Shown here: piece by piece, positions 13,854 to 31,488 of the stretch
Layout of the letters: each line of letters starts with the position of its first letter
How positions within the stretch are numbered: position 1 is the first letter of the stretch
Assembly (NCBI GenBank): GCA_028718125.1
Contig: JAQUMN010000017.1
Coordinates: 8,401 to 72,400, forward strand
DNA from: Kiritimatiellia bacterium
Lineage (GTDB): Bacteria > Verrucomicrobiota > Kiritimatiellia > JAAZAB01
DNA: 64,000 nucleotides
Direction: 5' to 3'
Made by a program: the position numbers and the translations under genes
The notes under the pieces: generated by a model
Seen by the model: the letters and a program-made list of their open reading frames with translations, nothing else
Told to the model about the DNA's origin: nothing
Databases searched by the model: none

Positions 13854-16811
13854 TCAAGCGAATATGATCGTTCCCAGGCGGGCGGTATCGTTGCGATAGT
13901 CATAGCCCTGGCACCACGCGCCGAAGGTGTTAATGCCCGCCGCCGGATTGGAGAGCACGTTGACCCGCCAGACGTCGTGGCGTTTCGGCTTGCCGCCGAG
14001 CTGGGACCATGGAATCACCACGTCGATTCGCCAGCTTGTATCGGTGTGCTCGAAGTGCGCGTGATACCCGGGGATTGGCTCCGGTGTGGTCATTTCCGAC
14101 AGGGTGCCGGACCGGTCGCGGAACAGCCGCCGTATTCCGCCTTTGCCCTCGTAAAAAATGCGGTAATCGAACACGCGCTCGCCCGTGTTGCCGGCGTCGA
14201 TAAAAATCTCCATGAACTCGTTCTGCTGGACCGTGCCGCGCTTCTGTTCCCAGGTGGCCCGGCGCCGGGCGAAGTTGATGTCGAACTCCCGCAGCGCCAG
14301 CTTCAGTCCGGCGCCGGTGTGCGTGATGCGCAGTTGCGTGTGAACGTCGCGGTCAAAATTAACCCGCCGGAAAAACGACGCGAAATCTTCAAGCGACGAT
14401 TCTCCCCAGCGGTAGTGCTGGTCGTGCACCATGGCGCGGAAACCGGAGTCGCGCCCGACGGCGTCGTCGGCAAAACATTGCATGGCCGGCGGGGTCGCCC
14501 CGTCGATCTCCGCCCGGACGTAATTGCGCCATGCCCGCACGTTGTCGTAATACACCGCGAGCTTCGCCGAGTTCGCCAGCTTCGCCAGCGCTTGTTCGGC
14601 CGCGGCCAGCGACGCCTTCAGCAGCTTCAGGTTGCGCGCCATGATCGGCCCGCGCACCGAGACATAGGGGCGGCTCATGCGGCGGATTTCGTTATAGCGT
14701 TCATGCGAACCCAGATACGCGGTCAGGGCCGCGGCGGGATAATCGGCCTTGGACGCGGCGAGAATCGCGGTGATGGCGTCGGCATCCTTTTGCGGCTGCC
14801 AGCGGGCGTGGAAGTTGGGCATGCAGAAATCGTCGGTCGCATGCAGATGCGGGCCCAGGACGTTGATGGCGTCCAGCAGGATAGACCGCGCGTTCGCCAG
14901 GTGCCTGCGGAACGCCGCCTTGCTGCCGGCAAAATAGCAGGCGCCCAGTTCGCGCGCGACGGCGATCTCGCGCCAGATGCGCTCCCCGCGCCGGCAGTTT
15001 TGGGCGACCGCGCCGATCAAGGCCTTGTCGGCCCCGGGGCCGACGAGCTGCCGCAGCCGTTTGACCGCCGCTTGCGACGCGGCGATATATGTCTGCAACT
15101 GCCGGATCATGTACCGCGGTCCGCGCGCCGCCTTCCGTTTAATCGCGGGATTAACCGAATCGATCGGGGCCTGCGTGTCGTCCGGCACGACCTTGGTCAC
15201 CTTGTCGCGCACAACCCATGTGCGCCAGCGCACGTTCGGGCGGATCGCGCCGAAGCGGTTCATGAACGACATCGGGTAGTAGAAAAAAGGCTCCTGGTAA
15301 TGCGAGAAGCGCCCGGGATGGAATCCACCCTCGGCGGCCGAGCCGTAACAGAACTGCTGGTAGCCCAGGAGCACGATCTGGCTCGATTTGAAAATCGCAT
15401 CGCGAATGGCCCGGCCCGCCGCCGGCGTTGTCCCGAACCAGGCCGCATAGCGCTGGGCCCATGCCTGCGGCGCGGGTGCTTCGCCGCGGACGTAATCGAC
15501 GACGGCCTCAACGTGCCCGCGGTTCATGCGCGCGTGAGACTGCAGCCATTTCCGGAAGATCGTTTTGCCCGGAAGCGCGTCCAGCAGCAGTTCGTGGCTC
15601 GACTGGCAGGAAATCGAGTCGGCGCCCCTGGCCTCGATGCTGGCCAGCAGGGCCTGGATGTAGGCCGGATCGGTCCATAGTTTCTGGGTGATATTCGCCG
15701 CGCAGTTGTGGCACGGCCCGAGGCTGAAGGTAAACTCCACTTCCGGCATGGCCTTCTTCCACACGGCCACCCGCGCGTCGGCGACGGGATAGAAATAAAA
15801 ATCGCTCGTGTCGTGGCTCTTGTGCACCAGGGCCTTGGGGCCCCGGTAGCTGCGCAGCAGTTGCGTCATGCCCGCGACATCCGACACCCCCCAGAGGCGG
15901 AAGAAAAGCACCGGTTTTTTTGCGAGCGCGTTCGCCACCCGCACCAGCGTCTTCTGCATGTACGGCACCGCGTTGCCCGACGATTCGAAGTTGATGTAAT
16001 ACCCGTCCAGTTCCGGCAGCACCTCGCGCGTGCGGCGATATATATAGCGGTTGTATTCTTCAACCACCGGGTGCTCGAAATTCGCCAGGAGGCTGCCGCG
16101 CGCCGATATCCCCAGTTTCAAATGGTCCGCCAGCGCCTGCGTGAAGTGCGTGGCGTAATGGTGCAGGAAAGTGCGCAGCCCGTACTTCTGCGCCCAGCCA
16201 AACAGGCGGCGCAACGCCGCGCGGGTTAGCTTGCGCTCGGCGGCGGGAATATGCGTCGCGTGCGCGAACCCCGCGTAGTCCAAAAAAAATTCGAACGGAT
16301 GATACCCGCAATAGACGACAAAACCGTTAAAGTGCCGCGCGGCCAGTTCCTGGAAAAACGCCTCCATTAACCGGTCCGTATACCCGCCCAGCCATGGCGG
16401 CGCATTCGGCGGCGCGGCGCCCACGCGCAGGTTCACTTCGTGCTTGTAGTTGCGCGACTTGAATTTAAGCGTGCATGCAAAATCTTCGAACTTGCCCGCC
16501 GCCGTCCGCCGGGCCAGCTCCAGCAGCGCGCCGATCGTGCCGGTGGCGGTGGCCGCGTCAATCGTGACGTTCTGTTCCGTCCACGCGACGGCGAACGCGT
16601 CGCCGGCCGGCTTATCCGGCGTTCTGAATATTAAGCGGCGCTTGCCCAGCGTGAAATTCCCGGCGTCTTGGACCATGCCCGGGACCCGCCCGGCCGCCCA
16701 GCGCACGCCGTGCGCTGCCGGGCCGAACCGTTGTTCCAATAGTTTGCTCTTTGCCATGGCATCTCCTCCTCTTTTAGCGGAAGCGGGCTTGCCGCCGGAT
16801 TGCAGGTTCAA
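13854..16811 (-). CDS. Large conserved hypothetical protein (985 aa), possible glycoside hydrolase-like catalytic core plus C-terminal carbohydrate-binding-like domain; no signal peptide
   Basis: Long ORF with a protein-like composition. Start uncertain: 'MAKSKLL' at ~16760 is plausible. The antisense ORF 13755..15680 is taken to be a GC shadow. Confidence 0.5.
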   Translation of the reverse strand: MNLQSGGKPASAKRGGDAMAKSKLLEQRFGPAAHGVRWAAGRVPGMVQDAGNFTLGKRRLIFRTPDKPAGDAFAVAWTEQNVTIDAATATGTIGALLELARRTAAGKFEDFACTLKFKSRNYKHEVNLRVGAAPPNAPPWLGGYTDRLMEAFFQELAARHFNGFVVYCGYHPFEFFLDYAGFAHATHIPAAERKLTRAALRRLFGWAQKYGLRTFLHHYATHFTQALADHLKLGISARGSLLANFEHPVVEEYNRYIYRRTREVLPELDGYYINFESSGNAVPYMQKTLVRVANALAKKPVLFFRLWGVSDVAGMTQLLRSYRGPKALVHKSHDTSDFYFYPVADARVAVWKKAMPEVEFTFSLGPCHNCAANITQKLWTDPAYIQALLASIEARGADSISCQSSHELLLDALPGKTIFRKWLQSHARMNRGHVEAVVDYVRGEAPAPQAWAQRYAAWFGTTPAAGRAIRDAIFKSSQIVLLGYQQFCYGSAAEGGFHPGRFSHYQEPFFYYPMSFMNRFGAIRPNVRWRTWVVRDKVTKVVPDDTQAPIDSVNPAIKRKAARGPRYMIRQLQTYIAASQAAVKRLRQLVGPGADKALIGAVAQNCRRGERIWREIAVARELGACYFAGSKAAFRRHLANARSILLDAINVLGPHLHATDDFCMPNFHARWQPQKDADAITAILAASKADYPAAALTAYLGSHERYNEIRRMSRPYVSVRGPIMARNLKLLKASLAAAEQALAKLANSAKLAVYYDNVRAWRNYVRAEIDGATPPAMQCFADDAVGRDSGFRAMVHDQHYRWGESSLEDFASFFRRVNFDRDVHTQLRITHTGAGLKLALREFDINFARRRATWEQKRGTVQQNEFMEIFIDAGNTGERVFDYRIFYEGKGGIRRLFRDRSGTLSEMTTPEPIPGYHAHFEHTDTSWRIDVVIPWSQLGGKPKRHDVWRVNVLSNPAAGINTFGAWCQGYDYRNDTARLGTIIFA

Positions 16812-16927
16812 CTGCGGCCCGGCGGGGCGCCACGCATCCTGTGCAAAGCCGCCCGTTTTCCAGGCTGTGTCGATGCATCAATCATTTGCTTCGCAGCTCG
16901 GTGTCTGCCGGCCGGGGTGCCGGCTGC

Positions 16928-19567
16928 TTAGAAATAAAGGGTTATTTCGGCCTTGCCCGCGAAGGGCGCGATGCGCACGGTTTCACTGGCCGCGTCATAG
17001 ACGCCGCCTTGCGCCCTGACGGCCCGGCGCCCCTCGGGATGCGGCAGGCGCAGCAGCACGGTCTTGGGTTTGCGCCCTCCGTCGCACTTCACCTGCGCGC
17101 TGATCCGGTTGCGGCCAAGCTGCGATTCGACCGCGAGCGTCAGCGGCCCGAAATAGGTGGCCACCTGGTCGAGCCGGACGGTTTGACCGTCCGCGAGCCA
17201 TGCGCGCGGGATGGCGCTTAACAGGCGCAAGTCATTGCCATCCTCCAGCCAGAGCATCCAGCGCGTCTGCATCAGGAACCAGGCCTGTTCATGGGTCTTG
17301 TGTTCGCTGGCGTGATGGTAATGTTCCCAGAATGTGTAGGTCTCGCGGTCCTGCAGCGCGGTGATCTGGTTGTAATAAGTTTTGAGGAACGCCGCGACCT
17401 CGCCGCGCCGGATATGCGCATAATCATGCCGGCAGTAATAAGGCTGGCTCAGCGCGGCGTTTTCCAGGGTCACGGGATATTGATTGGTCTTGAGCATGAA
17501 CTTCGCGCCGATTTCAGCGGGATCGAGCGCCTCGCTGATGACCAGCCACAGCGGGCCGGTCAAACAACTGCGCGCAGCGAAGGCGCCATGGGTGAACCAA
17601 TTGCCGCCATCGGCATAGAAACTGATCCCGCCGGTATATTCCACCCACGGCGGCATGAGCGGCGCCCAGGAGCCGTCGGCCAGCGGTATGAGCGGCGCGC
17701 GCGCCTGCGCGTGATAAAACCCGGCGCGAATGTCTTTTAAATATTCCGGCAATTCGCCCGCGAGCATCCGGGCATATTCCGGATCAACATCGCGCAGGAT
17801 TTCCGCCACGCGCTTCAGGCCGACATAAGTGCCGGCATTCAGGAAAAAAGAGTGATAAAAATCGTTGCAATCGGCCACCTTGCCGTTGACCATGCCGTAA
17901 AATCCCTTGGCGCGGTATTCCTCCAGCTTGTTGCGTTCCCGCCATTGCAGGAGGTAATCGGCGGCTTTCCTGATGTTAGGCAGTACGCGCTTGAGCCAGG
18001 CCGCATCGCGCGTATAGCGGAAATGCTCGCCGGCGGTCCAAAGCAATGGGCCGGTCTCGCTTTCATACTTGCCGAAGTTCTGAATGAACCCGTCGGGCCG
18101 CTGGCGCACGAAGAAGAAGTCAAGGCAGCGCTCGGCTAATTTGTGCCAGCCCATGGAATCGAAGAATTGAATAATCGGCGCGCTTTCGGTCCCGATGGGC
18201 GCGTACCAGCCGATCGTGGCCAGCACCGGCCCATCCGGCTCGCGTCCCAATGCCACGAGGTCGCAGTGTAACAGTCCTGCCTGGATGTTCTCCTGAATCG
18301 GCTTTTCCGGCACGGTAATTTTTGCTGCCGAGGCCAGGCGCGCGCGCCAATATTCGCGGCAGGCATCCAGATGTGCGTTAAAATCCAGTTTCAGCAAGGC
18401 TTGGGCGCGCGCCGCATCCAGGGGCGAGTGCGGGATCAGGATGTCGAATTTCACGGTCTGGCCCGGTTGCAGCAAAACAGCCATTTCCTCTTCCGGCAGG
18501 GCCTGGTCGTCAAGCCGGTTGACGGCATAAACCGTGCCGGCGGATTCCAAGACGGAAAAGCCGTTCTTGAATTGATGTTTATCCGGCGTCGCACGCCCGG
18601 GAAAACCGCATATGTGCCCGGCTTTGAACCAGGCATAGCGCGGCGTCTTGCCGGTGTTGACGGCTTCCACGCGCAGGCAACAGACAACTTCCTGCTCGCG
18701 CTGCCGCATCTCGGCTTGTAGCCGATCATACATTGCCGTTTTTTGTTCAGCGGTCAGCATATTGCCGCCGGCATTGGCATAGCAAGCATCCCACTCCGAT
18801 CCGCGGACGGCGTCCGCGCTGAGCGGTGCTTTTTCCAGCGAGGCAAATAGAACGAGATTGTAATGGACATCCTGCTCGACCTGGGTGGAGCGTAAAATGG
18901 GCAAGACGCCATCTTCCTGGCGCCGTGTGATTTGCGGGCGGCAGGAAGTCCCCTGGCCGATTTCAAAATTCACCTGGTAGGCCGTGGGGGGAGTGCGTTC
19001 CATTATCGGTGTCCGGCTTACGGGAATATATTGCGGGATGCTGTGATAACATGGTTGAATCTGTCCCCAATATTCGTAGCGTTCCTGATATCCCACGCGA
19101 AACATGCGCATATCGCGGCCAAGTCCCAGCCAGGTCGAACAATATTGCCTGCGATTCAAGCGCGCCGCATGGGCGTAAGATTCTTCCGGAGCGTTGTCAA
19201 ACCGCGTGAAGTCGGAAATCAAGCCGCGGGCGGCAACATCTCCGGCTACCTGCGCATAATCGCGCGCGTCACCTCCGGGAACCACCGCCGCCTGGAATTC
19301 CGGAATAAAAACGGGAGTGGCGGAATTGACGTCGCGCAAATTGAAGGCAAACGGATTTTCATCCGTAACGACATTGCAGATTGTCGGGAACGCCCCGCAT
19401 TTCAAGGTGAATTCCGAAAACGAAATTTCCAGCCGCCCGCCCTGCGGCAACTGGAAGCGATTTTCGGCGCTATTGCCGCCTGGCGCATGCAAACGCCCGA
19501 CTTTCCCGTTGCGCGCCATGATCGTGCCGTTGACATTATTCCGGCCGAACAATACTGTGATCTTCAT
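16928..19567 (-). CDS. Large hydrolase-like protein, paralog 1 (probable (alpha/alpha)6 six-hairpin glycosidase-like), cytoplasmic
   Basis: About 880 aa and roughly 60% identical over its full length to 25158..27782 (e.g. 'GWYAPIGTESAPIIQFFDSMGWHKLAERCLDFFFVRQRPDGFIQNF'). Start placed at 'MKITVLF'. Confidence 0.55.
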   Translation of the reverse strand: MKITVLFGRNNVNGTIMARNGKVGRLHAPGGNSAENRFQLPQGGRLEISFSEFTLKCGAFPTICNVVTDENPFAFNLRDVNSATPVFIPEFQAAVVPGGDARDYAQVAGDVAARGLISDFTRFDNAPEESYAHAARLNRRQYCSTWLGLGRDMRMFRVGYQERYEYWGQIQPCYHSIPQYIPVSRTPIMERTPPTAYQVNFEIGQGTSCRPQITRRQEDGVLPILRSTQVEQDVHYNLVLFASLEKAPLSADAVRGSEWDACYANAGGNMLTAEQKTAMYDRLQAEMRQREQEVVCCLRVEAVNTGKTPRYAWFKAGHICGFPGRATPDKHQFKNGFSVLESAGTVYAVNRLDDQALPEEEMAVLLQPGQTVKFDILIPHSPLDAARAQALLKLDFNAHLDACREYWRARLASAAKITVPEKPIQENIQAGLLHCDLVALGREPDGPVLATIGWYAPIGTESAPIIQFFDSMGWHKLAERCLDFFFVRQRPDGFIQNFGKYESETGPLLWTAGEHFRYTRDAAWLKRVLPNIRKAADYLLQWRERNKLEEYRAKGFYGMVNGKVADCNDFYHSFFLNAGTYVGLKRVAEILRDVDPEYARMLAGELPEYLKDIRAGFYHAQARAPLIPLADGSWAPLMPPWVEYTGGISFYADGGNWFTHGAFAARSCLTGPLWLVISEALDPAEIGAKFMLKTNQYPVTLENAALSQPYYCRHDYAHIRRGEVAAFLKTYYNQITALQDRETYTFWEHYHHASEHKTHEQAWFLMQTRWMLWLEDGNDLRLLSAIPRAWLADGQTVRLDQVATYFGPLTLAVESQLGRNRISAQVKCDGGRKPKTVLLRLPHPEGRRAVRAQGGVYDAASETVRIAPFAGKAEITLYF

Positions 19568-19591
19568 TACATCTCCCTGTATTTGCACTGT

Positions 19592-20419
19592 TTATATCCT
19601 TTGCAGCACCCATGACAACCCCTGCTTATCGTGAAGCGGCGAGTCATGATCGCCGCCAGGGATTTCATGATAGAAAAAGTTTTTTTTATCACGCAACAGT
19701 TCTGCCAGGATGCGCGACTGCTCCACGGGAATGATTCGATCGGCACCTCCATGCGTCAGATAAACCGGCATAGCAAGCCGGTTGACGTTGGCTTGAGCGG
19801 AGTGGCGGCGATAAATTTCCGGCGCATGGTCGGGATCGGCGCCGTAGGCCGTGAGGATGGCATCGGCAATTTCGCGCAGGATCGGCAGGGTTTGCGTTGT
19901 GCACCACCGGTAATAGCTGCCCACGTCGGACGCGACCCCCCGCGCCACAATTCCGGCGACGTCGCCCGGATATAAAACGCCGTAAATTAAATTGCCGGTT
20001 CCGCCCATTGACCCGGAGCAAAAAATAGTTTTTTGCATGCCGAATTCCGCGCGTAAAAAATCCAGAACGGCATGCATGTCGGCTGCAGCCGCCGGACACA
20101 TCCAGGCGTTGTCGCGCAAATTCAGGGTTATGATGCCGGCTCCGGTGTCCAGAAAATCCGGCAGCCATTTTTCGCGCACATCGCGCCGTGTATAAAGCTG
20201 GTCGCCGTGCGAGCCGTGTCCATGCAGCACCACGGTCCAAAGCTCGTGCCGTTTACCCGGCCGCAACAGGGCCCAATCCGGCGCGTCATCCACAGCGCTC
20301 GCATAATCCAGACGCTGCATACCTGCAGGAAAAAACGCGCCGGATACCGGCTGTAATTGCAAAATTTTAATTTTGTGTATCTTCCCTGCGTGGTTATTTT
20401 GCCATTCCGGCATTCTCAA
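19592..20419 (-). CDS. Alpha/beta-hydrolase (esterase/peptidase S9-like), paralog A
   Basis: GxSxG elbow 'GSMGG' and a conserved 'HGGADRIIP' near the C-terminus. Paralogous to 22547..23365 and 23368..24204. Confidence 0.65.
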   Translation of the reverse strand: MRMPEWQNNHAGKIHKIKILQLQPVSGAFFPAGMQRLDYASAVDDAPDWALLRPGKRHELWTVVLHGHGSHGDQLYTRRDVREKWLPDFLDTGAGIITLNLRDNAWMCPAAAADMHAVLDFLRAEFGMQKTIFCSGSMGGTGNLIYGVLYPGDVAGIVARGVASDVGSYYRWCTTQTLPILREIADAILTAYGADPDHAPEIYRRHSAQANVNRLAMPVYLTHGGADRIIPVEQSRILAELLRDKKNFFYHEIPGGDHDSPLHDKQGLSWVLQRI

Positions 20420-22013
20420 GAATTTTCCGCATGTTGGCGCCCAACCCGGGGATCAAGTCGGCATCCGGCAGCGGCATGGAAAGGTAGCGCCCAAGTTCCC
20501 AGGCCTGATCGTGCGCGGCGGTATCGGAGCCGAACAAAACGCGGTTTTTGCCGACCAATTGCAGCGAGGTTTCGAACGGCCGCGGCGTGGTGAAAGTACC
20601 GCAGAATTCCAGATAAACGTTTGGGTGCGCCTGGGCCAAGGCCTCGGCTTCCAGGCGGCCTGCGGTGCCGCCGCCGGAATGTCCCAGGATGAACGTTGCG
20701 TGCGGATATTGCATCACAATATCCTTTAACAGTGCGGGTGAATTGTATTTGTCATCCCAGGTATGCAGCAGAATCGGCCGTTGATGCCGGTCCGCATGTT
20801 CCCATACCGGCTGGTAACGCGGGTCGGTGGCGGGAATCTTCCAATAGGATGGCAGCAGTTTGAATCCCACAAAAAAACCGCGCTGGAAAAACTCGTCCAG
20901 CCGGGGGATCATCTCCCCGGCATATAACGGATTGAAAACCAGGTAACCCGAAAACCGGTCGCCGTGCTTTAACAGGATATCTTCCACCTCGCGATTGCCT
21001 CGATAGTTTTCGCCAAACAAGGCGGCTTCGGGAGAAAGGATCAGGCGCCGGACGCCCAAGCGATCCATCTGGGCAATCAGGGCGGCAATCCCGCTTTGGT
21101 AATCTTGCTGCCGGATGACCCATCCGCGCGTATGCGGCGGCGAATGGCCATGGGCATCAATGATTTCAACGTCCTTAATCGGCTTGCCTTCGCGCAAAAC
21201 ATTCCACAGCGGCTTTTGTTGCAGCAGCGCCGGGGGCCGGGTTATTTTCCCTGTGAGCGGGTCAAGCTTCAACAGGCGCTCGATATTGCCGTGCGCAATC
21301 TCATCGCGCTGGGCATCATCCAGCCGCGCATGCATGAGGGCGGCAATGGCGGCGCCGTAGTGCGATTTATAACCAATGCCGAAAAGCACGCGTGTGGCGC
21401 CGAAATTTTCGGTCAGAAGTTCAATTGTGTCGCGCATATGCAGCCAGGAAGTATCCACATAGACATTCGGACAGCGCCACATCAGGTCCAGGACGCTGCC
21501 GAACCCGCCCCACATTTTTTGGGTTATCACGAAGGAAATTTGCGGGAAGGTCCGCGCCAGGTGTTCCATGTCGCGGATGTCCAGCTCGTCATGGCCATGC
21601 CGGCAATCCCAGAACAGCGCCGGCTTGAATTGCGCCAGCTCGGAGAGCACCCGCTCAATCTCGCGGATCGGAAAGCGCGACATGTCCGGGGTGATGCGCA
21701 GGGCCCGCACCCGGCCTGCGCCAAATTGCGCCCGCAGAAAATCCGAAATTCCGTTTTCAAAAAAACAAGCCGGGGTGACGATAAACGTCGGCAAAAGGCG
21801 TTGTTCCAGGCCCGCCTCCGCGATTTCCTGCAGCAAACGCCGGTTGCCCAGCATGGGATTAAGATCGCGCGCCGCGACATGCCACACGAGCGAGCGGTCA
21901 ATCCCTAGATAATCCAAATGCGCCGCAAACGATGCCGCCGTTGGAAACTGGGGCTCCTCATAAGCGCCGCGCCCGATATGGCCATTGACATTGAACAAAG
22001 ACAGGTTTTTCAT
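20394..22013 (-). CDS. Amidohydrolase-2 family protein (two tandem metal-dependent TIM-barrel hydrolase domains)
   Basis: 539 aa with 'HxH...H...D' style motifs repeated in the N- and C-halves ('IDAHGHSPPH', 'ILGHSGGG'). Confidence 0.6.
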   Translation of the reverse strand: MKNLSLFNVNGHIGRGAYEEPQFPTAASFAAHLDYLGIDRSLVWHVAARDLNPMLGNRRLLQEIAEAGLEQRLLPTFIVTPACFFENGISDFLRAQFGAGRVRALRITPDMSRFPIREIERVLSELAQFKPALFWDCRHGHDELDIRDMEHLARTFPQISFVITQKMWGGFGSVLDLMWRCPNVYVDTSWLHMRDTIELLTENFGATRVLFGIGYKSHYGAAIAALMHARLDDAQRDEIAHGNIERLLKLDPLTGKITRPPALLQQKPLWNVLREGKPIKDVEIIDAHGHSPPHTRGWVIRQQDYQSGIAALIAQMDRLGVRRLILSPEAALFGENYRGNREVEDILLKHGDRFSGYLVFNPLYAGEMIPRLDEFFQRGFFVGFKLLPSYWKIPATDPRYQPVWEHADRHQRPILLHTWDDKYNSPALLKDIVMQYPHATFILGHSGGGTAGRLEAEALAQAHPNVYLEFCGTFTTPRPFETSLQLVGKNRVLFGSDTAAHDQAWELGRYLSMPLPDADLIPGLGANMRKILENAGMAK

Positions 22014-22110
22014 GAAAAATCCTGAATATCATACGTATGCGTGCTTTGCAAGCAATCCGATAAATTCCAAGTTCCACAATCAAAATTCCAGGGAATATTC
22101 AAATTCTAAT

Positions 22111-23367: not shown

Positions 23368-24204
23368 TTAGTTCTGTTCCCGGCCGCTGTTTCCGTATGC
23401 CTTGAAAATGAATTCAAGGGCCTGGGTGGTGTCTTCGTAGTTGGTTGTGTGTCCGGTGTCCTTGCGGTCAATCAACAGTGCTTCCCGCTTCATTGCCCGC
23501 AAGCGCTCCGCCAAACGACGGACGCTGTCCGGCGGGACGGATGTATCCTTGCCGCCCACGGTGAAGGCAACCGGCATGGTGAACTTGTCCGGAACCAGTT
23601 CCGGACTGCGTTTCCGGTATTCTTCCGGTTGCTCCTGCTTGTTGCCGCCGTATGCGACGGCAATTGCTGCCTGGAAGTTCAGATAATCCAGCATGTTGGC
23701 CGTGCCGTTTTGCGCACTGATCCCGGCCACCAGTTCGGGGTGCAGCGCGGCAAAAATCAGTGCCGAAGTTCCGCCCATGGACCCGCCCGCCAGGAAAACC
23801 TTGCGGACGCGGTGCTTGTTGCGGAGCAAGGCAATGATCTGCAACAGGTCGGCCTCGGCTTTCGGCCCCATCCACGAAGTGGATGCCCGGTAGTCCGGCG
23901 ACACCATGATCATCGCGTGCCGGGCGGCAAAATCGCGAACCGCCTTGCACTCGCTACGCTCATCCTTGATGTATTGCCAGCGATCGGAACCATGCCCATG
24001 CAAGGCGATCACGACGTCGTAAGGCATGGATGGCCGGAAATCTTTGGGGAGTATTTCCACGTAACGTTGCGCGGTCCCGTCCACGTCAGCCTTGAACTCC
24101 ACGTCCACAGGCTTCCCAGGATCGCCCGCCGTGAGGGAGGTCCCGATTGGGGCCTTTGAGCCGAAAATGGTCATAATAACAGACCATGATAGCGCTAATT
24201 TCAT
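23368..24204 (-). CDS. Alpha/beta-hydrolase, paralog C
   Basis: 'LAGGSMGGTS' elbow and 'VGGKDTSVP'. Only 2 nt separate it from paralog B. Confidence 0.65.
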   Translation of the reverse strand: MKLALSWSVIMTIFGSKAPIGTSLTAGDPGKPVDVEFKADVDGTAQRYVEILPKDFRPSMPYDVVIALHGHGSDRWQYIKDERSECKAVRDFAARHAMIMVSPDYRASTSWMGPKAEADLLQIIALLRNKHRVRKVFLAGGSMGGTSALIFAALHPELVAGISAQNGTANMLDYLNFQAAIAVAYGGNKQEQPEEYRKRSPELVPDKFTMPVAFTVGGKDTSVPPDSVRRLAERLRAMKREALLIDRKDTGHTTNYEDTTQALEFIFKAYGNSGREQN

Positions 24205-24211: not shown

Positions 24212-25024
24212 TCAGTCCTTCAGGTGCGTCAGCGTCCGGCGCAGGCTTTCGGATGGTTCCAGCGTCGGCGTGTATTCCAGCGCGAAAATGCCCTTGTAGC
24301 CCATGGCTTCAATCTGGCGGACCAGGAAAGGATAATTGGTTTCGCCCAGCCAGAGCTCGTGCCGGCCGGGATAGCCCGCTGAATGAATATGGCCGATCAC
24401 ATCCAGGTTTTTGCGGATGTGGCCGGTCAGGTCGCCTTCCATGATTTGCATGTGGTAGCAATCGAACAGCAATTTCATGCGCGGCGAATTGACTTCGCGG
24501 CACATGGCGGCGCCCTCGTCGGAGCTGGTCAGGAAATAATTGGCATGGTCCACCTTGTCGTTGAGCACTTCAAGCAACAGCGTGATGTCGGCCTTTTCAG
24601 CCCGCTCCGCCGTGGCTTTCAGGCCATCCAGAACGTTCTTTTGCATTTGCGCGCGCGCGAGGCCCTTGACCAGGTTGCCGGTGCAGATTATCGCGGCGCC
24701 GATATTGGCCTCCTTGCAATATGCCAGCGTGGCATCGGTCTGTTTTAACCATTCCGTGCGGTGGGTGGCATCAGTTAGCCCGCCTCCCAGTTTGCCGTCC
24801 GGAGACCCGATCACAACGTTGGTCATGGTAACCCCGGCTTTTTCAGCGGCGGCGCGGATTTTTGCCGCGCGCTTAAATTTCCTGGCGTCATCCGCGCCCT
24901 TTGCAGGCGCGAGGTCGCCGAACCACATCTCGGCGAATGTAAAGCCAGCATTCGCGGCCAATTGGATGCGATCGAGGAACGGACGATCCGTGAAAACCAT
25001 TTCCAGACAAACGCCATAGTTCAT
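24212..25024 (-). CDS. Hydroxypyruvate isomerase-family protein (xylose-isomerase-like TIM barrel)
   Basis: 270 aa; 'LEMVF...FAEMWF' and 'LLLEVLN...EY' hallmarks of the Hyi/IolE-like family. Confidence 0.6.
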   Translation of the reverse strand: MNYGVCLEMVFTDRPFLDRIQLAANAGFTFAEMWFGDLAPAKGADDARKFKRAAKIRAAAEKAGVTMTNVVIGSPDGKLGGGLTDATHRTEWLKQTDATLAYCKEANIGAAIICTGNLVKGLARAQMQKNVLDGLKATAERAEKADITLLLEVLNDKVDHANYFLTSSDEGAAMCREVNSPRMKLLFDCYHMQIMEGDLTGHIRKNLDVIGHIHSAGYPGRHELWLGETNYPFLVRQIEAMGYKGIFALEYTPTLEPSESLRRTLTHLKD

Positions 25025-25157: not shown

Positions 25158-27782
25158 TCAGAAATATATTACCACATCAGCCTTGCCCTTGAAGGGCGTG
25201 ATGCGCACCGTTTCATGTTTTGCGTCGTAAACGCCGCCTTCAACTTTTATGGCTTTGCGTCCTTCGGGATGCGGCACACGAATAAGCACTGTCTTCGGCT
25301 TGCGGTTGCCGTCGCACTCCACGTGGGCGCTAATCCGGTTGCGGTTAAGCTGCGATTCGACGGCGAACGTCAGCGGCCCGAAATAGCTGGCCACCCGGTT
25401 TAGCCGGATTGCTTGGCCGTCCGCGAGCCATGCGCGCGGGATGGCGCTTAACAGGCGCAAGTCCTTGCCATCCTCCAGCCAGAGCATCCAGCGCGTCTGC
25501 ATCAGAAACCAGGCCTCTTCGTGGGTCTTGTGCTGACTGGCGCCAAGGTAATGTTCCCAGAATGTGTAGGTTCCCCGGTCTTGGAGGGCGGTGAATTGAT
25601 TATAGTAAGTTTTGAGGAACGCCTTGACTTCACCGCGCTTAAGGTGGATGTAGTCATGGCGGCAATAGTAGGGCTGGCTCAAGCCGGCATTGCGCACAGT
25701 CATCAGTGCCTGGTGCGACTTCAGCGGGAATTCCGTGCCAAGCTCATTCGCATCGAGCACCTCCGAAATAACCAGGTACAGGGAGCCGATAAGCGAGTCC
25801 CGTCCGCTGAATGTTCCGTGGGTGAACCACTTGCCGCCCTCGGCATAAAGCGCCAGCGCCCCGGGGTATTCGGTCCAGGGCGGCGCCGATGAAACCCATG
25901 TCCCGTCCCCGATGGGAACAACCGGCGACCGGGCAAGGGCCTCGTAAAAAGCCGCCCGGATATCCTGCTTGAACTCGCGCGCTTCCCGGGCCAGGCGCCG
26001 GGATGCTTGCGGATCGATGTTAGCCAGCATTTCCGCAACACGCTGGATGCCGACATAAGAAAGGCCGTTCAGCATGAAGGAATGGAAAAAATCCTGGGGG
26101 TCGGCGACCTTGCCGTCAAGCAACCCGTAACCCTTGCCGCGCAGTTCCGGCTTCTTGTTCCGTTCCCGCCAGGCGAGCAGGTATTCGCAGGCCTTGAGCA
26201 GGTTCGGCCGGATTCGCTTCACCCAGGCAATGTCGCGGGTGTAGCGGAAATGTTCGCCCATGGTCCAGAGGGCCGGCCCGGTTTCCAGTTGATACCCGTT
26301 AAAATTCTGGATGAAACCATCCTCCCGCTGGCGGTTGAAAAAAAACTGTAACGCGCGCTCGGCCAGGTGATGCCAGCCCATCGAATCGAAAAACTGGATG
26401 ATGGGCGCGCTTTCCGAGCCGATCGGCGAGTACCAGCCGATCGTGGCCAGCGCGGCGCCATCCGGCTCCTTGCCAAGTGTGGTAATGTCGCAGTGCAACA
26501 GGCCCGCCTGGATGCGTTCGTTGATCGCCCGCTCCGGGACGTGGATTGATGCGGCAGCGGACAGCTTGGCGCGCCAGAATTTCCGGCAGGCATTGAGGTG
26601 TGCGTCAAAATCGAGCTTGGACAGTTTGGCGGCGCGCGCGCGCGGCAGCGGTTGATGGGGAATCAATATTTCAAATATGGCTGTCTCCCCCGGCTGGAGC
26701 AGAACCGCCATTTCCTCTTCGGGCATGGGCGCGCCATTGAGGCGATGGATGGCGAACACGCGTCCTGATTCCAGGATGCCATAGCCGTTTGCGCTTTGAT
26801 AGCCCGCCGGTTTAAGCAGACGCGCTCCATAGAAAGACCCGCCTTTGAACCATGCGTATTGCGGAGTGCGCTCCGTGTTCACCGCCGCGATGCGGATGAC
26901 ACAGACTGTTTCCTCGTCGCGCGCGCGCATTTCAGCGCGCAATAGATCCTTAAGTTTCTCCCGTTCCTCCGGCGTAAGCATGTTGCCGCCGGTATTGGGA
27001 TAACATGCGGTCCATTCGGAACCGCGCACGGCATTGGCCGAGAGCGGGCGATTTTCCAGGGTACAGAAGACGGTAAGATGATAATGGACATTTTCTTCGC
27101 GCTGCGTCGAGCGCAGGATGGGCAGGACGCCATCCTCCAGGCGCCGCGTGATGTCATACCGGCAGGAATTGCCCGGGCCAACCACGAATCCGATACTATA
27201 AGGCTTGTCGCCCGATTCCGGAATATTTTGAAGCGTGGAGTGATAGCGCGGCTGGACATATCCCCAGTAACCCAATTTGGGGTCGTAGCCTACTTCGAAA
27301 AAACGCATGTCGCGGCCAAGTCCCAACCAGGTAGGACACATCAGGTCCCGATTGCCGCGGCAGGCATTTTCGTAAGTTTCCTCCGGCTCCAGCTCGATTT
27401 GTTGAGATTTGCCTACAAAGCCCAGTTCGCGAATTTCCGCTTCGATTTCGGTATAAGATCGCCGATCAGCAGCTTCCGTGATCATGACGCCGTAGGCAGG
27501 AATATAGATCGGATGATCCCGGTTGATATCCCGCACAAAGCATGTGAACGCGTGCGGTTTGCCGGTAACGGTCAGACGGGTGGCAAATGCCCCGGCCTTC
27601 AATTGGGCATCGGCTATCCGGCATTCCAGCCGCACGGGACCTTTAGCCTGAATCCTGCCTTTTCCCGAAACGCGCCCCTTGCCTTGGACAATCCGGACTG
27701 ACTGTAATTGCCCATGCACAACGGTCAGTTCCGCTTGCACCGGCCCCGATTGCCACTCAAGGGCAATACATTTGGTTTTCAT
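25158..27782 (-). CDS. Large hydrolase-like protein, paralog 2
   Basis: Paralog of 16928..19567. Start placed at 'MKTKCIALEWQ' (27780-27782), immediately after the upstream gene's stop. The longer track ORF would overlap that gene by 134 nt. Confidence 0.55.
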   Translation of the reverse strand: MKTKCIALEWQSGPVQAELTVVHGQLQSVRIVQGKGRVSGKGRIQAKGPVRLECRIADAQLKAGAFATRLTVTGKPHAFTCFVRDINRDHPIYIPAYGVMITEAADRRSYTEIEAEIRELGFVGKSQQIELEPEETYENACRGNRDLMCPTWLGLGRDMRFFEVGYDPKLGYWGYVQPRYHSTLQNIPESGDKPYSIGFVVGPGNSCRYDITRRLEDGVLPILRSTQREENVHYHLTVFCTLENRPLSANAVRGSEWTACYPNTGGNMLTPEEREKLKDLLRAEMRARDEETVCVIRIAAVNTERTPQYAWFKGGSFYGARLLKPAGYQSANGYGILESGRVFAIHRLNGAPMPEEEMAVLLQPGETAIFEILIPHQPLPRARAAKLSKLDFDAHLNACRKFWRAKLSAAASIHVPERAINERIQAGLLHCDITTLGKEPDGAALATIGWYSPIGSESAPIIQFFDSMGWHHLAERALQFFFNRQREDGFIQNFNGYQLETGPALWTMGEHFRYTRDIAWVKRIRPNLLKACEYLLAWRERNKKPELRGKGYGLLDGKVADPQDFFHSFMLNGLSYVGIQRVAEMLANIDPQASRRLAREAREFKQDIRAAFYEALARSPVVPIGDGTWVSSAPPWTEYPGALALYAEGGKWFTHGTFSGRDSLIGSLYLVISEVLDANELGTEFPLKSHQALMTVRNAGLSQPYYCRHDYIHLKRGEVKAFLKTYYNQFTALQDRGTYTFWEHYLGASQHKTHEEAWFLMQTRWMLWLEDGKDLRLLSAIPRAWLADGQAIRLNRVASYFGPLTFAVESQLNRNRISAHVECDGNRKPKTVLIRVPHPEGRKAIKVEGGVYDAKHETVRITPFKGKADVVIYF

Positions 27783-27792
27783 GAGACTCTGA

Positions 27793-29112
27793 TTACACCT
27801 TGGCCAGCACCTTGTTAATGCCCTCGGCAATGGCGCGGCAATCCGCGGCGGAATAATTGGCGCTGATGCCGATACTGACCACCCGCGAGAGATAATCGAG
27901 CGTCTGCGGGCACATATCCGGCGCATAAGCCGGCAGTTCCGACTTCTTTACGCCGCTCCAGGGCAGCCCGTCCGGGGCGACCGCTTTCTGTTCCATGATA
28001 TGGTCCCAGTGCGTGTAAATGTGCCAGTTCTTGATCTTGGCGTCGTAAATGCCGCCGGCCGGGACGCCTTCGGCCACCATGGCCTTCGTGGCCCACTTGG
28101 TTTTTTCCACGTCAGGCATAAACATCACCAGGGTCGTGCCGACAACGCCGTCAGGATCGGACAAACGCTGGAGCTTGACACCCCGGGGCAACTCCAAGGC
28201 GTTCATGATTCGTCCGAATGCCGTGCGGTAGCCCTTGACAATCTTGGCGGCCTTGCGGATTTGCGCCAGGGCCACCGCCCCCTGCAGTTCGCTCATGCGA
28301 TAATTTTCGCCGCAGAAAAGCTCGCCCTCGCGCCGTTCCGAGGCGAACCGGTTCGGGCGCCAGCAAGCGGCGCAATCGTGCCAGGACTGCGCGCGGGTGT
28401 GGAGCCACTCGTTGCTGGTCGTGATGAAGCCGCCTTCGCCGCTGTTCAAAACCTTGTAATAGTCAAAGCTGAAACAGCCGATTGTGCCGATGCTGCCCAG
28501 CATTTTGCCGCGATAGGATCCGCCCGCCGCCTGGGCCACGTCCTCGATCAGCGCAATCTTATTTTTGTCGGCCAGCGCTTTCAGTTCGGCCATCTGGGCC
28601 GGAAGCCCAAGCATATGCACGACGGCGATAGCCTTCGTGCGCGGCGTGATCCGTCGCGCGACATCTTTCGGGTCGAGGGTCAGCGTGTCATCCACGTCGG
28701 CGATCACGGGGATGGCGTTGCAGGCGCCCACCGCGGCGGCCGTGGCAAAAAACGTGTAGGCCGGCACGATGACTTCGTCGCCCATGCCGACGCCCACGGC
28801 CCGCATGGCGGCAATCAGGGCCGAGGTGCAGGAGTTAACGGCCAGGCAGTAGGGAACACCAATGTATTTGCCAAACGCCTTTTCGGCCGCCTCCACTTTG
28901 CTCGGGCGCGGGTTGTAATAGCGGAAGAGATGCGGCCCCTTGATATCCTTGGCCGATTTGCGAATGGCTGTCTCAACCGTTTTGCGTGCGGGCGCCGGGA
29001 GTTCCCAGAGATCGAGCACTTCCAGCAGTTCGTCCACGTGAATCTTGGTGGGGTGGGGCCCCATTTTACCAACAGCCTTTGCGCCGCCTTCGATGGCCAG
29101 TTGCTTGCTCAT
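27793..29112 (-). CDS. DegT/DnrJ/EryC1/StrS-family PLP-dependent sugar aminotransferase/dehydratase
   Basis: 439 aa. 'AVNSCTSAL', 'DEVIVPAYTFFAT' and 'SFDYYKVL' (PLP-lysine region) are characteristic. The SD 'GGGAGA' sits 8 nt upstream of the ATG. Confidence 0.8.
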   Translation of the reverse strand: MSKQLAIEGGAKAVGKMGPHPTKIHVDELLEVLDLWELPAPARKTVETAIRKSAKDIKGPHLFRYYNPRPSKVEAAEKAFGKYIGVPYCLAVNSCTSALIAAMRAVGVGMGDEVIVPAYTFFATAAAVGACNAIPVIADVDDTLTLDPKDVARRITPRTKAIAVVHMLGLPAQMAELKALADKNKIALIEDVAQAAGGSYRGKMLGSIGTIGCFSFDYYKVLNSGEGGFITTSNEWLHTRAQSWHDCAACWRPNRFASERREGELFCGENYRMSELQGAVALAQIRKAAKIVKGYRTAFGRIMNALELPRGVKLQRLSDPDGVVGTTLVMFMPDVEKTKWATKAMVAEGVPAGGIYDAKIKNWHIYTHWDHIMEQKAVAPDGLPWSGVKKSELPAYAPDMCPQTLDYLSRVVSIGISANYSAADCRAIAEGINKVLAKV

Positions 29113-29124
29113 GGTGTGATCTCC

Positions 29125-29187
29125 CGATTTCCGATTTCTAATTTCTAATTTCTAATTTCTAATTTCTAATTTCTAATTTCTAATTTC
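29125..29187. repeat. Heptanucleotide microsatellite: 7 perfect AATTTCT units plus degenerate flanking units (GATTTCC, GATTTCT at the 5' end; AATTTCA at the 3' end); fills the divergent aminotransferase/AraC promoter region
   Basis: Read directly. It begins 13 nt from the aminotransferase start codon and ends ~25 nt before the AraC ORF. Confidence 0.9.
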
Positions 29188-29213
29188 AACCTACTCTATT
29201 TCGCTGGGTTAAA

Positions 29214-30236
29214 ATGGCAATGGACGGGCAGGTAAATTATTTGTATTATCTTGCAATGGCTAAACAAGCGATTGCTGCGAATGCGAAGGGGTATGGTTGG
29301 ACTTGGCTGACGGTGCCGGCGGAGATGCCTGTGCTGGTCAACGCGACTCGCGCGGTTGGGATGGCGTCGCATTCGAGCCGGGGTGTCCGGCACAGCAATC
29401 CATACTGGGTGCTTGATTACAGTTTATCGGACTTGGGGTTGTTCAAGGTGGGACGGCGGACGGCTCCCTGGCTTCGTCATGCGGCCGGCGAAGCCCTGTT
29501 GTATCCGCCGCATACGCCCTACTGGGAGGACATGAGTTCAGTCAAGCCGCCGATTCGCAATGCCTGGCTGATGTTCTGCGGCGGTCCGGGCGCGGGTCTG
29601 GATACGCTGGTGAGGAGCGCGGCCGGCTATGCGCGATTTGTAGATCCCGAAGGCCGCTTGGGGCGTCTGATTGAGCAGGCGGCTGAAGTCGGGCAGCTTG
29701 AAGGGGACGGCGGTTTCTGGAAGGCCATGGGATTATTGTGCGAGGCTCTGGATTTGCTGCGGCATAGTGTGCCGATCAATGTTGATACCTACCGGATCCC
29801 GGCGACTATTTTGCCGGAGACGCCGACGCTGGCCACGGCAGTAACGGCCTACCTGCGCGAGCATATGGCCCAACGTCTTTCGCTGGGGATAATGGCGGGG
29901 CATCTGCATGTCAGCGTCTCGACGCTTTCGCATAGGTATCGCGCCGAAACGGGCGAGTCGCCGATCGCCACGCTCATTCGCCTGCGTATTCAGCAGGCCC
30001 GGAATCTCTTGATGAAAGGCCAGCGCCTTAAAACGATTGCCGCAACGCTCGGCTTCAGCGACGTCTATCACCTTTCCAAAATGTTCAAGCGCGTGGAAGG
30101 CCGCTCTCCCCGTCAATTTGTGAAAGCGATCAATGCGCCGCCCGGTCCGCAGCGCCCGGCTGCCGCGCGTGCAGGTCGTGTATGCGCAAGCGCGGGAAGC
30201 CCGCAGACGACCCGGGATCGCCGCCGAATTTTGTGA
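29214..30236 (+). CDS. AraC-family transcriptional regulator
   Basis: C-terminal AraC HTH ('IATLIRLRIQQARNLL...IAATLGFSDVYHLSKMFKRVEGRSPRQF'). The N-terminal domain is ligand-binding-like. The start could instead be 29259. Confidence 0.8.
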   Translation: MAMDGQVNYLYYLAMAKQAIAANAKGYGWTWLTVPAEMPVLVNATRAVGMASHSSRGVRHSNPYWVLDYSLSDLGLFKVGRRTAPWLRHAAGEALLYPPHTPYWEDMSSVKPPIRNAWLMFCGGPGAGLDTLVRSAAGYARFVDPEGRLGRLIEQAAEVGQLEGDGGFWKAMGLLCEALDLLRHSVPINVDTYRIPATILPETPTLATAVTAYLREHMAQRLSLGIMAGHLHVSVSTLSHRYRAETGESPIATLIRLRIQQARNLLMKGQRLKTIAATLGFSDVYHLSKMFKRVEGRSPRQFVKAINAPPGPQRPAAARAGRVCASAGSPQTTRDRRRIL

Positions 30237-30309
30237 ACCGAATGTGTGCCACGAACCACTTGGAACAAAAATACGACGAAGGAAGTAGACAATCATCATA
30301 GGAGGCGCC

Positions 30310-31488
30310 ATGAATAAGAACCTGGATTACACCATCACGCGCGATGTTCTCTCCGAAGGCTCCGATGGCCGCACCCAATGGTTCCAGCCCCGCGCGGCCA
30401 TCCTGCCGCCGAATTCGGCGGTGATCATGATGACTCGGTCCATCCTGTCGGGCAGTGATTTATTTACCGCCATCCAGTCCATGCAGTCGGATGACGGGGG
30501 CCGGACCTGGTCAAAACCGGTGGCGCATCCGGCCACTCTGGGCCGGCACCTCGAACCCGAGGGCACCGAAGTGGTGCCGTGCGATATGACCCCCGCCTGG
30601 CACGCGGCTTCGGGAAAACTGCTGGCCACGGGACATACGTGCCGCTATTTAAACGGCAAACATGCCCCGCCCCCGCAGCGCCGCGAAACCCCATATGCCA
30701 TCTATGATCCTGACACCCGCGCCTGGTCGCCCTGGCGCCACCTGGATCTGCCCGACCGTGACGGAAAGTTCTTCAATGCGGGCGCCGGCTGTACCCAGCG
30801 CGTCGACCTGGCGAACGGTGACATCCTGTTGCCCATTTATTTTATACCTCGCGCGGCGACGCACGACTCCAGGCATAACTGCTATTACGCCACCGTGGTG
30901 CGCTGTGGTTTTGACGGCGCCACCCTCCGCTACCTGGAACAAGGCGACGAACTGACTTGTCCGGATCCGCGCGGCTTTTGTGAGCCGTCCCTGGTCCGTT
31001 TCCAGGGTCTTTTTTATCTGACCTTGCGCAATGACGTGCGCGGCTATGTGACCGTGGGTGAAGACGGACTTCACTTCCAGCCGCCCCGGCCGTGGACGTT
31101 TGACGACCGCCAGGAACTGGGCAGTTACAACACCCAGCAACACTGGGTGGCCCACAGCGAAGGATTATTTCTGGTTTACACCCGGCGCGGCGCCGACAAT
31201 GACCATGTTATCCGGCATCGCGCGCCGCTGTTCATGGCGCGCGTGGATACCGAGCGCCTGTGCGTGTTAAGGGAAACCGAGCGAATCCTTTTGCCGGAAA
31301 AGGGAGCTCAGTTCGGTAATTTCGGGACCGTGAACGCCTCCGCAGACGAATCATGGGTCACTGATGCCGAGGGACTGCAAGGCGACGCAAAAAAGCCCAT
31401 GGACATTGCACGCACGATCCAACGGGGCGCTGCCAACCGGCTTTACCTCTGCCGGTTGCGATGGAACCGGCCCAATCGCCTGGCATAA
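30310..31488 (+). CDS. BNR/Asp-box repeat protein, sialidase (exo-alpha-sialidase)-like six-bladed propeller, cytoplasmic
   Basis: Asp-box 'SDDGGRTW' with no signal peptide. A 'GGAGG' SD lies upstream. Confidence 0.6.
   Translation: MNKNLDYTITRDVLSEGSDGRTQWFQPRAAILPPNSAVIMMTRSILSGSDLFTAIQSMQSDDGGRTWSKPVAHPATLGRHLEPEGTEVVPCDMTPAWHAASGKLLATGHTCRYLNGKHAPPPQRRETPYAIYDPDTRAWSPWRHLDLPDRDGKFFNAGAGCTQRVDLANGDILLPIYFIPRAATHDSRHNCYYATVVRCGFDGATLRYLEQGDELTCPDPRGFCEPSLVRFQGLFYLTLRNDVRGYVTVGEDGLHFQPPRPWTFDDRQELGSYNTQQHWVAHSEGLFLVYTRRGADNDHVIRHRAPLFMARVDTERLCVLRETERILLPEKGAQFGNFGTVNASADESWVTDAEGLQGDAKKPMDIARTIQRGAANRLYLCRLRWNRPNRLA

Follow-up and report, generated by a model that had tools for sequence, protein, structure and literature searches.

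The window analysed here, 64,000 nucleotides (nt) of the 79-kb contig JAQUMN010000017.1, comes from a metagenome-assembled genome (MAG) of a Kiritimatiellia (Kiritimatiellae) bacterium (locus tags PHW60_08550, PHW60_08555 and PHW60_08585) and contains a cluster of eleven genes, among them two large paralogs of a protein family that we call G880, a DegT-type transaminase and an AraC-family regulator. Judged from gene families and gene order, the core of this cluster is a genuine, functionally linked catabolic operon that is conserved across several phyla and matches no described pathway that we found; a search of the literature returned no description of it. The general type, a regulator-controlled glycan-catabolic operon, is known; this one includes an uncharacterised glycoside hydrolase (GH)-like family together with an unusually placed DegT-type transaminase. 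We hold with moderate confidence that the region as a whole is a composite, AraC-controlled and mainly cytoplasmic glycan-catabolic cluster built around the conserved operon.

The conserved operon and the G880 family

All eleven open reading frames (ORFs) listed in the initial annotation were found in place, nine on the minus strand and two on the plus strand, and Pfam bore out the classes proposed there for three alpha/beta-hydrolases, a two-domain amidohydrolase, an isomerase-like TIM-barrel protein, DegT and AraC. The minus-strand genes are transcribed in the order degT, G922, hyi270, est278, abh272, amido539, abh275, G886 and X985, interrupted by a 533-nt gap after abh272; araC, on the plus strand, diverges from degT and has bnr392 downstream of it (Table 1). 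Start codons were chosen by inspection of ribosome-binding sites and agreement with database protein lengths, which trimmed the three large proteins (X985, G886 and G922) to 967, 879 and 874 amino acids (aa; ATG at 16757, 19567 and 27782, respectively). The X985 start is preceded by GAGGAGG.

Gene neighbourhoods were compared in 80 of 505 G880 loci, with flanks of up to 10 kb and unsupervised clustering of all ORFs, the window itself being included in the counts. The most frequent neighbours of G880 were the tandem amidohydrolase (16 of 77 loci), the alpha/beta-hydrolase and DegT (12 each), the Hyi-like isomerase (11) and AraC (10), followed by a GFO oxidoreductase (8), a second AraC type (6), a sulfatase (5) and a PIG-L deacetylase (4). 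Six of the eleven gene families of the cluster (DegT, Hyi-like isomerase, alpha/beta-hydrolase, tandem amidohydrolase, the G880 protein itself and divergent AraC) rank as the six most frequent G880 neighbours. The conserved order consists of a divergent AraC gene and then degT, hyi, (abh), amido, (abh), (sulfatase) and G880, with the genes in brackets present in some loci, and it was kept in Kiritimatiellia, in Lentisphaeria/Victivallaceae (including MAGs assigned to Victivallis vadensis) and in Planctomycetota. A looser arrangement of degT, hyi, PIG-L and two G880 genes was observed in an Acidobacteriota locus (L079). Independent gene calls with precomputed Pfam annotation recovered the same operon on contigs of 5.1 Mb and 365 kb, and at least one core partner was observed in 15 of the 43 loci having at least 8 kb of upstream sequence. 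The suggestion that the eleven genes form one linked catabolic unit therefore holds for the six core families, whose order is kept across phyla; it does not extend to X985, bnr392 or the neighbouring major facilitator superfamily (MFS) gene, which are not co-conserved. X985 and bnr392 were rejected as core members by tblastn against 82 G880 loci, in which neither was found within 10 kb.

Elsewhere the operon carries accessory genes, including a sulfatase between the hydrolase and G880 (L002 and L003), PIG-L (L032 and L079) and YdjC (L078), all of which fit the deacylation or desulfation of a decorated amino glycan. We also observed a second recurrent module in which G880 is joined by a different DegT and a neutral-ceramidase-like amidase (L136, 12809-17081; L015, L037, L054 and L058). 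L136, the only fully annotated locus of that group, has in addition ThuA and its own AraC gene. This suggests that bacteria of the Planctomycetes-Verrucomicrobia-Chlamydiae (PVC) group hold several DegT-containing catabolic modules. Genes of the URO-D (uroporphyrinogen-decarboxylase-like) family recur near G880 as well (L014, 490-1674; L028, L034, L037 and L050), that of L014 lying between degT and hyi, and a distant URO-D-like ORF is present in the window at 34591-35886, 3 kb to the right of the cluster. In L003, the closest Kiritimatiellia relative, an ISL3-type transposase-like ORF (7528-8790) separates abh from the sulfatase inside the operon, and the edge of L136 also bears an ISL3 transposase, so the operon locus is prone to mobile-element activity. 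A reported pyrrolamide system that pairs a GH-like dehydratase with DegT was considered and set aside as an unrelated GDP-sugar biosynthetic cluster.

The G880 proteins G886 and G922 are 60% identical across 854 aa. Neither had a Pfam match at E ≤ 0.01, their best NCBIfam score was far below threshold (TIGR01577, 'oligosaccharide amylase', 16.9 bits against a cut-off of 820.7), and nothing in the PDB was matched by phmmer or by hmmsearch with a 31-sequence family profile. An AlphaFold2 model built from the family alignment was confident (predicted local distance difference test, pLDDT, 86.7; predicted template modelling score, pTM, 0.87); in it, beta-sandwich domains occupy residues 1-380 and an (alpha/alpha)6 barrel residues 385-772, ahead of a C-terminal beta-sandwich. 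The architecture of GH15, GH65 and GH95, an N-terminal beta-sandwich followed by an (alpha/alpha)6 catalytic barrel, is thus present in the model. Foldseek matched it to GH95, dextran dextrinase, GH65, GH94 and GH78 (E 1e-11 to 1e-8). GH139 is also among the fold matches, and structurally G880 is nearer GH15 and GH65 than GH95. Compared with GH15, GH65, GH94 and GH95 (clan GH-L-type and related), G880 has the same fold type but a longer N-terminal region (~380 aa), about 10% identity, template modelling (TM) scores of 0.35-0.5 and no sequence match to a family hidden Markov model or PDB entry. Invariant Asp, Glu and His residues are numerous in the barrel region. The earlier description of these proteins as six-hairpin-like hydrolases was upheld by the model and Foldseek; it is right at the fold level, but no searched sequence model or solved structure matched. 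Domain searches likewise placed none of the three large proteins in a characterised Pfam or NCBIfam family.

A profile search of 1.84 billion cluster representatives (50% identity) returned 2752 G880 relatives, 578 of them at E ≤ 1e-30, and the 505 matching stretches came from species-representative genomes. The family ranges over PVC bacteria, Bacteroidota, Acidobacteriota and Bathyarchaeia. One subfamily, of ~1200-aa proteins, has only the barrel and the C-terminal domain in common with G886 and G922 and carries an N-terminal NPCBM carbohydrate-binding domain and signal peptides. On a Prolixibacteraceae chromosome (L078) a G880 homolog was found within a canonical polysaccharide utilization locus (PUL), in the order SusC, SusD, an unknown 857-aa protein, GH43, esterase, G880, GH27, YdjC and GntP, and GH78 rhamnosidases adjoin G880 in two further genomes. 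Genes of the abh275 type adjoin G880, immediately upstream, in many loci, and in a 1107-aa metagenome protein (P0330) a hydrolase of this type (41% identity, E 3e-52) is fused to a full-length G880, a single example that may be a gene-calling or frameshift artefact. From the fold, the NPCBM- and signal-peptide-bearing relatives, the SusC/SusD PUL membership and the GH78 neighbours, we consider G880 very likely a carbohydrate-active family and probably a new GH-like one.

The two paralogs belong to different subclades. G886 groups with orthologs from amido-abh-G880 operons (L001-L003, 72-74% identity), and G922 groups with orthologs from degT-hyi-G880 operons, such as those of L014 (85%) and L044 (82%). 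The duplication of giant genes described initially therefore stands as paralogy, but a recent tandem duplication was ruled out by the closer orthologs elsewhere (74% and 85%, against 60% between the paralogs); either the genes were duplicated long ago or one copy came in as a second acquisition, as each paralog is closer to foreign orthologs than to the other. X985 was also checked for relatedness to the G880 paralogs, and none was found.

Core enzymes and a possible pathway

The transaminase degT matched PF01041 at 249 bits (threshold 19.8). By far its best relative among solved structures was KdnA (5k8b; E 1e-64, residues 77-438), the 8-amino-3,8-dideoxy-D-manno-octulosonate (Kdo8N) transaminase of Shewanella, which it matches over its full length; in the motif around the lysine that binds pyridoxal phosphate (PLP), SFDYYK of degT aligns with SFDSVK of KdnA (SFDxxK). 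Nucleotide-sugar aminotransferases matched the N-terminal domain only, at E 1e-46 or weaker, and against the NCBIfam equivalogs (LegC, PseC, WecE, ArnB and others) the best score was about 160 bits, with cut-offs of 375-650. KdnA acts on a free sugar acid, not on a nucleotide sugar. A KdnA-like degT is therefore compatible with a catabolic role, since a catabolic enzyme would never meet nucleotide sugars. The two differ in context: KdnA belongs to lipopolysaccharide core biosynthesis, degT to an AraC-regulated operon with hydrolases, and KdnB, the partner oxidase of KdnA, is absent at the window locus.

The isomerase-like hyi270 matched PF01261 (AP_endonuc_2) at 119 bits and fell well under the Hyi/OtnI equivalog cut-offs (146.4 against 325 bits for NF043033 and 145.5 against 353 for TIGR03234), and we accordingly describe it as Hyi-like and not as an equivalog. 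Its best PDB matches were 3ngf and YgbM (1k77), with YcjR (6wn6) also among the matches. The amidohydrolase amido539 (PF04909, 114.8 bits) consists of two Amidohydro_2 domains in tandem, the N-terminal one degenerate. The DxHxH and FGSD metal-site motifs were confined to the C-terminal domain in all 16 orthologs, each of which has a single DxHxH around residue 285 and a single FGSD around residue 493. The Amidohydro_2 family (PF04909) includes lactonases, decarboxylases and hydratases.

Among the three serine hydrolases, abh275 matched the Pfam families Hydrolase_4, BD-FAE and Abhydrolase_1 and is 40% identical to abh272 and 33% identical to est278. An ortholog of abh272 (65% identity) holds the same operon position in L003. 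The initial annotation stated that none of the products has a signal peptide. This was the case for most of them, and no signal-like hydrophobic N-terminus was observed among the core proteins other than est278, the N-termini having been inspected by eye as a heuristic and not with SignalP. By the same inspection est278 probably carries a signal peptide: its N-terminus is signal-like (MKLALSWSVIMTIFGSKA), and its ortholog in L010 has a clear one.

Gene content, paralogy, folds, gene order across phyla and remodelling are observations; a substrate class and an order of reactions are what we infer in addition. Our best guess at the substrate is an esterified oligosaccharide containing an amino sugar. 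Such an esterified oligosaccharide or glycoside would be imported, its acyl groups would be taken off by the serine hydrolases, and its glycosidic bond would be cut by G880, by hydrolysis or phosphorolysis. The KdnA-like transaminase could then convert the amino group of the released sugar or glycoside to a carbonyl, which the Hyi-like isomerase would shift, and the C-terminal Amidohydro_2 domain would complete the conversion to a central metabolite. In other genomes the sulfatase, PIG-L, YdjC or ceramidase-like enzymes might strip sulfate or N-acyl groups before transamination. The initial annotation had proposed an undescribed, intracellular degradation route, and this is borne out in part, in that the core families are conserved together, no described pathway found corresponds to them and most products are without signal peptides.

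The closest functional analogy is to the keto-glycoside operons, namely E. coli ycj, Bacteroides BT2157-2160 and Agrobacterium ThuAB. The ycj operon encodes the GH65 enzyme YcjT, the TIM-barrel 3-keto-glucoside epimerase YcjR and GFO dehydrogenases. The window operon similarly combines a protein of GH65-type fold with an AP_endonuc_2 TIM barrel, the counterpart of which in those operons works on carbonyl sugars, and GFO oxidoreductases and ThuA are found near G880 elsewhere; unlike those operons, it has a PLP transaminase in the place of the dehydrogenase, and the carbonyl would come from an amine. Bacteroidota PULs share with the window a regulator and clustered glycosidases, esterases and deacetylases, but a Pfam scan of the genes at the window locus gave no SusC/SusD pair, and most of the products appear cytoplasmic.

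A bolder version of the proposal, which we regard as speculative and rather doubtful, is that the operon specifies a hitherto undescribed route by which amino-sugar glycosides would be processed, with transamination as its opening step. The KdnA-like transaminase would replace the GFO/ThuB-type dehydrogenase of the 3-keto-glycoside pathways, and the resulting carbonyl sugar would pass to the Hyi-like TIM-barrel and Amidohydro_2 enzymes. G880 would then found a new GH or phosphorylase family, and PVC bacteria and others would recycle acylated amino sugars from, for example, bacterial envelope glycans.

Several observations weigh against our reading of the region as a glycan-catabolic cluster. 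The operon accounts for only about a third of the G880 genes, the rest being found in other glycan contexts, and no transporter, kinase or dehydrogenase is co-conserved with it. Small non-sugar acids are also substrates of PF04909 and Hyi-type enzymes, and the hydrolases also match peptidase families S9 and S33. In the window itself, the operon may be split into two units by a repeat resembling a miniature inverted-repeat transposable element (MITE), because the copy within the operon has a terminator-like hairpin, 7 bp and all GC with a T-rich tail, on the minus (transcribed) strand at 22296-22280.

Accessory genes and alternative explanations

X985 had been described as a protein with no recognisable family. 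As a single sequence it indeed had no Pfam match, sub-threshold NCBIfam scores only and nothing in the PDB; a family profile and a structure model together pointed to a distant relationship to GH138. The AlphaFold2 model (pLDDT 90.5) consists of an N-terminal alpha/beta domain, a TIM barrel, a helical bundle and a C-terminal beta-sandwich, the first three of which are the domains of the GH138 fold. The top Foldseek match was GH138 (6hzf; E 4e-21, TM 0.5-0.64, ~735 aligned columns), and the next fold matches (GH20, GH67, GH84 and GH89) were ten orders of magnitude weaker. The family profile of X985 matched the GH138 protein BPa0997 at E 3e-6, over residues 29-243 only (~215 residues). By its model, X985 appears to be a glycosidase distantly similar to GH138 and extended by a C-terminal beta-sandwich. 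It shares the alpha/beta domain, TIM barrel and helical bundle with the GH138 alpha-galacturonidase (BT0997/BPa0997) of the Bacteroides rhamnogalacturonan-II (RG-II) PUL and differs from it in its 12-14% identity, a sequence match limited to the N-terminal part, the extra beta-sandwich and the lack of a signal peptide. A G-P-C-H-N-C motif (residues 347-352 of 967 aa) was invariant in all 34 aligned family members and may be a metal or redox site. In 55 metagenome loci of its own the X985 family had a variable context, with no partner recurring beyond 6 loci.

The resemblance of X985 to an RG-II enzyme, by fold and by profile, is one argument for another reading of the cluster, in which its target would be the side chains of an acidic glycan of plant or algal origin, for example RG-II or sulfated fucan. 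In that case G880 would act as a GH95-like alpha-L-fucosidase or galactosidase, X985 as a GH138-like alpha-galacturonidase and bnr392, the BNR protein, as a hydrolase of the Kdo/Dha type, while the esterases would serve as deacetylases and the amidohydrolase as a sugar lactonase. The fold matches of G880 include GH95 and GH139, sulfatases lie inside the operon of the closest Kiritimatiellia relatives, and GH78, GH43 and GH27 are neighbours in other genomes. PF04909 includes fucono- and rhamnono-lactonases, which also suits this reading. Against it stand the lack of co-conservation of X985 and the BNR protein with the operon and the position of G880, nearer GH15 and GH65 than GH95 and at about 10% identity to all of them, and it would assign no role to the transaminase and the Hyi-like isomerase, which are both conserved. 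We consider it unlikely.

A link to nonulosonates had been proposed at the outset, but we find it very improbable that the cluster serves to break down sialic acid, legionaminic acid, pseudaminic acid or Kdo, with a sialidase-like enzyme releasing the sugar acid and DegT deaminating it. This reading draws on bnr392, the BNR/sialidase-like gene that adjoins araC, and on degT, whose top (sub-threshold) NCBIfam families were LegC and PseC and whose best PDB match is the Kdo8N transaminase. The LegC and PseC scores were about 160 bits against cut-offs of 420, however, and no NanA-type lyase, NanK, NanE, or sialate or other nonulosonate transporter was present among the Pfam matches of all genes between 8.7 and 37 kb. 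The sialidase-like character of bnr392 was itself upheld in part: NCBI names it a 'sialidase family protein' and the precomputed annotation lists PF13088, but its BNR_2 match was weak (24.2 bits against a gathering score of 31.4) and PDB sialidases were matched only at E ~0.4, so neither threshold nor similarity to solved structures placed it in the GH33 sialidases. The family is also very large (>5000 matches) and was unlinked to the operon in 82 of 82 loci.

We give even less credence to a biosynthetic cluster in which DegT would make an amino sugar for a glycoconjugate or compatible solute, with the GH-like proteins acting as transglycosylases or as phosphorylases in the synthetic direction. 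The PDB matches of degT are all biosynthetic enzymes, nearly all characterised DegT-family enzymes are to our knowledge biosynthetic, and enzymes of the GH65/GH94 fold can work in reverse. Against this, no glycosyltransferase, nucleotidyltransferase, 4,6-dehydratase or flippase was found in the locus or the conserved operon, an AraC regulator together with esterases, sulfatases and deacetylases is characteristic of catabolic loci, and members of G880 occur in SusC/SusD PULs and with carbohydrate-binding modules.

The initial annotation also placed an MFS transporter and a second isomerase just upstream of the cluster. These genes and a phosphofructokinase (PFK) gene in fact sit beyond its 3' end, past a convergent gene for a lipoprotein-type M48 peptidase. 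In L014, a close relative (81-92% amino-acid identity), M48 abuts the G922 ortholog and is directly followed by PFK and an MFS remnant, and we therefore assign the MFS, PFK and second TIM-barrel genes to the genomic backbone. As they are not co-conserved with the operon either, we rejected them as its transporter and downstream enzymes. A fortuitous juxtaposition of eleven genes without common function in a repeat-rich, rearranged region might be read from the MITE-like repeat and the rearrangements and from the fact that X985 and bnr392, like the MFS, PFK and TIM-barrel genes, are not co-conserved, but the six core families are co-ordered across phyla and sometimes fused, which makes it the least credible explanation of all. 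We thus retain the glycan-catabolic cluster around the conserved operon as our reading of the region.

Remodelling of the window locus and implications

Relative to L014, the window locus is rearranged, in agreement with the remodelled region proposed initially. The order in L014 is degT, URO-D-like, hyi, G922 ortholog and M48; in the window hyi comes after G922, and about 11 kb of extra genes precede M48. From its gene order the window version is a rearranged composite of two operon variants, degT-hyi-G880 and abh-amido-abh-G880, to which an extra esterase, the distant GH138-like glycosidase and the sialidase-like protein were added.

The MITE-like repeats reported at 12.2 and 22.1 kb were both found and belong to two different families. 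The first is a 203-nt intergenic repeat with copies at 3875-4077, 8517-8719 and 22107-22309 (94-98% identity) and partial matches at 6183-6211, 37471-37509 and 41186-41224; it contains internal palindromes (TTTTCCGCCGGAGGCGGATCCGCC...) and the motif TGTCATTCCGAGCGTAGCGAGGAATCTCG and had no match in Rfam. The second has a copy at 12179-12300 that is inverted relative to those at 8339-8506 and 62656-62850 (88-97% identity). Because this copy overlaps the first ~25 annotated codons of the MFS ORF, the true MFS start may lie further downstream.

The microsatellite noted in the promoter region is a perfect (ATTTCTA)x7.7 tract. It follows a promoter-like site and ends shortly before the ribosome-binding site and start codon of degT. 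As it was absent from seven homologous intergenic regions, we ruled it out as a conserved regulatory element, and it is a candidate for slipped-strand variation of operon expression. Promoter-like sites were fewer than the shuffled expectation, and no promoter is therefore claimed. An Rfam search of the whole window matched no riboswitch or other known RNA.

Table 1. Genes and repeats of the cluster, with positions in the window.
Feature	Position	Strand	Description
Second repeat family copy	12179..12300		Left edge of backbone genes
X985	13854..16757	-	967-aa distant GH138-like glycosidase (from the model); NCBI MDD5678021.1 has the same length; accessory neighbour outside the conserved operon
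G886	16928..19567	-	879-aa G880-family member; NCBI MDD5678022.1; terminal gene of the conserved operon
abh275	19592..20419	-	Alpha/beta-hydrolase, serine esterase type, GSMGG; start between 20320-20419
amido539	20394..22013	-	Tandem Amidohydro_2 protein
MITE-like 203-nt repeat	22107..22309		Inside the 533-nt abh272/amido539 gap
abh272	22547..23365	-	Alpha/beta-hydrolase, paralog of abh275
est278	23368..24204	-	More distant esterase; Pfam Esterase and Peptidase_S9
hyi270	24212..25024	-	Xylose-isomerase-like TIM barrel, Hyi/OtnI-like
G922	25158..27782	-	874-aa second G880-family paralog; P0030, PHW60_08585
degT	27793..29112	-	PLP sugar aminotransferase, DegT family; first operon gene
Microsatellite (ATTTCTA)x7.7	29134..29187		Perfect heptanucleotide tract, degT/araC intergenic region
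araC	29214..30236	+	AraC-family regulator, AraC helix-turn-helix by Pfam; divergent from degT
bnr392	30310..31488	+	Sialidase-like BNR beta-propeller protein, downstream of araC

The remainder of the window contains housekeeping genes, including metal transporters, isocitrate dehydrogenase, ATP-citrate lyase and glutamine synthetase. A dense run of metal-uptake genes lies directly to the right of the catabolic cluster at 31612-43833 (ZnuABC-like transporter, Nramp, FeoB, and CbiM/PDGLE with an ABC ATPase), and isocitrate dehydrogenase is followed by an ATP-citrate lyase-like pair (ATP-grasp_2/Citrate_bind and Succ_CoA_lig/Citrate_synt) at 45154-49695. A 276-aa ORF without a Pfam match (49764-50594) contains five head-to-tail repeats of 45 nt (15 aa) at 50054-50311, with 60-73% identity to the reference copy. 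Near its right end, at 63269-63823, the window has two adjacent direct repeats (one of 114 nt with 89% identity, the other of 79 nt with 71%, spaced by ~325 nt), which suggest small paralogous genes arranged in tandem.

PVC genomes commonly contain uncharacterised CAZyme-like operons, and the locus is in no respect at odds with current understanding. G880 is a large family, yet it has no Pfam model, solved structure or named function, and the operon partners give a handle for assigning its activity and possibly for defining a new CAZy family. The fixation of a DegT-type transaminase in a catabolic, AraC-regulated operon is unusual. If the substrate were an ordinary acetylated hemicellulose fragment, all that would remain of the finding is a standard catabolic operon with a new GH family in it. 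If DegT does deaminate free amino sugars or amino-glycosides, the operon would represent a new entry route for amino sugars into metabolism and would help to explain the use of decorated glycans by Kiritimatiellia, Lentisphaerae and Planctomycetes in digesters, sediments and guts.

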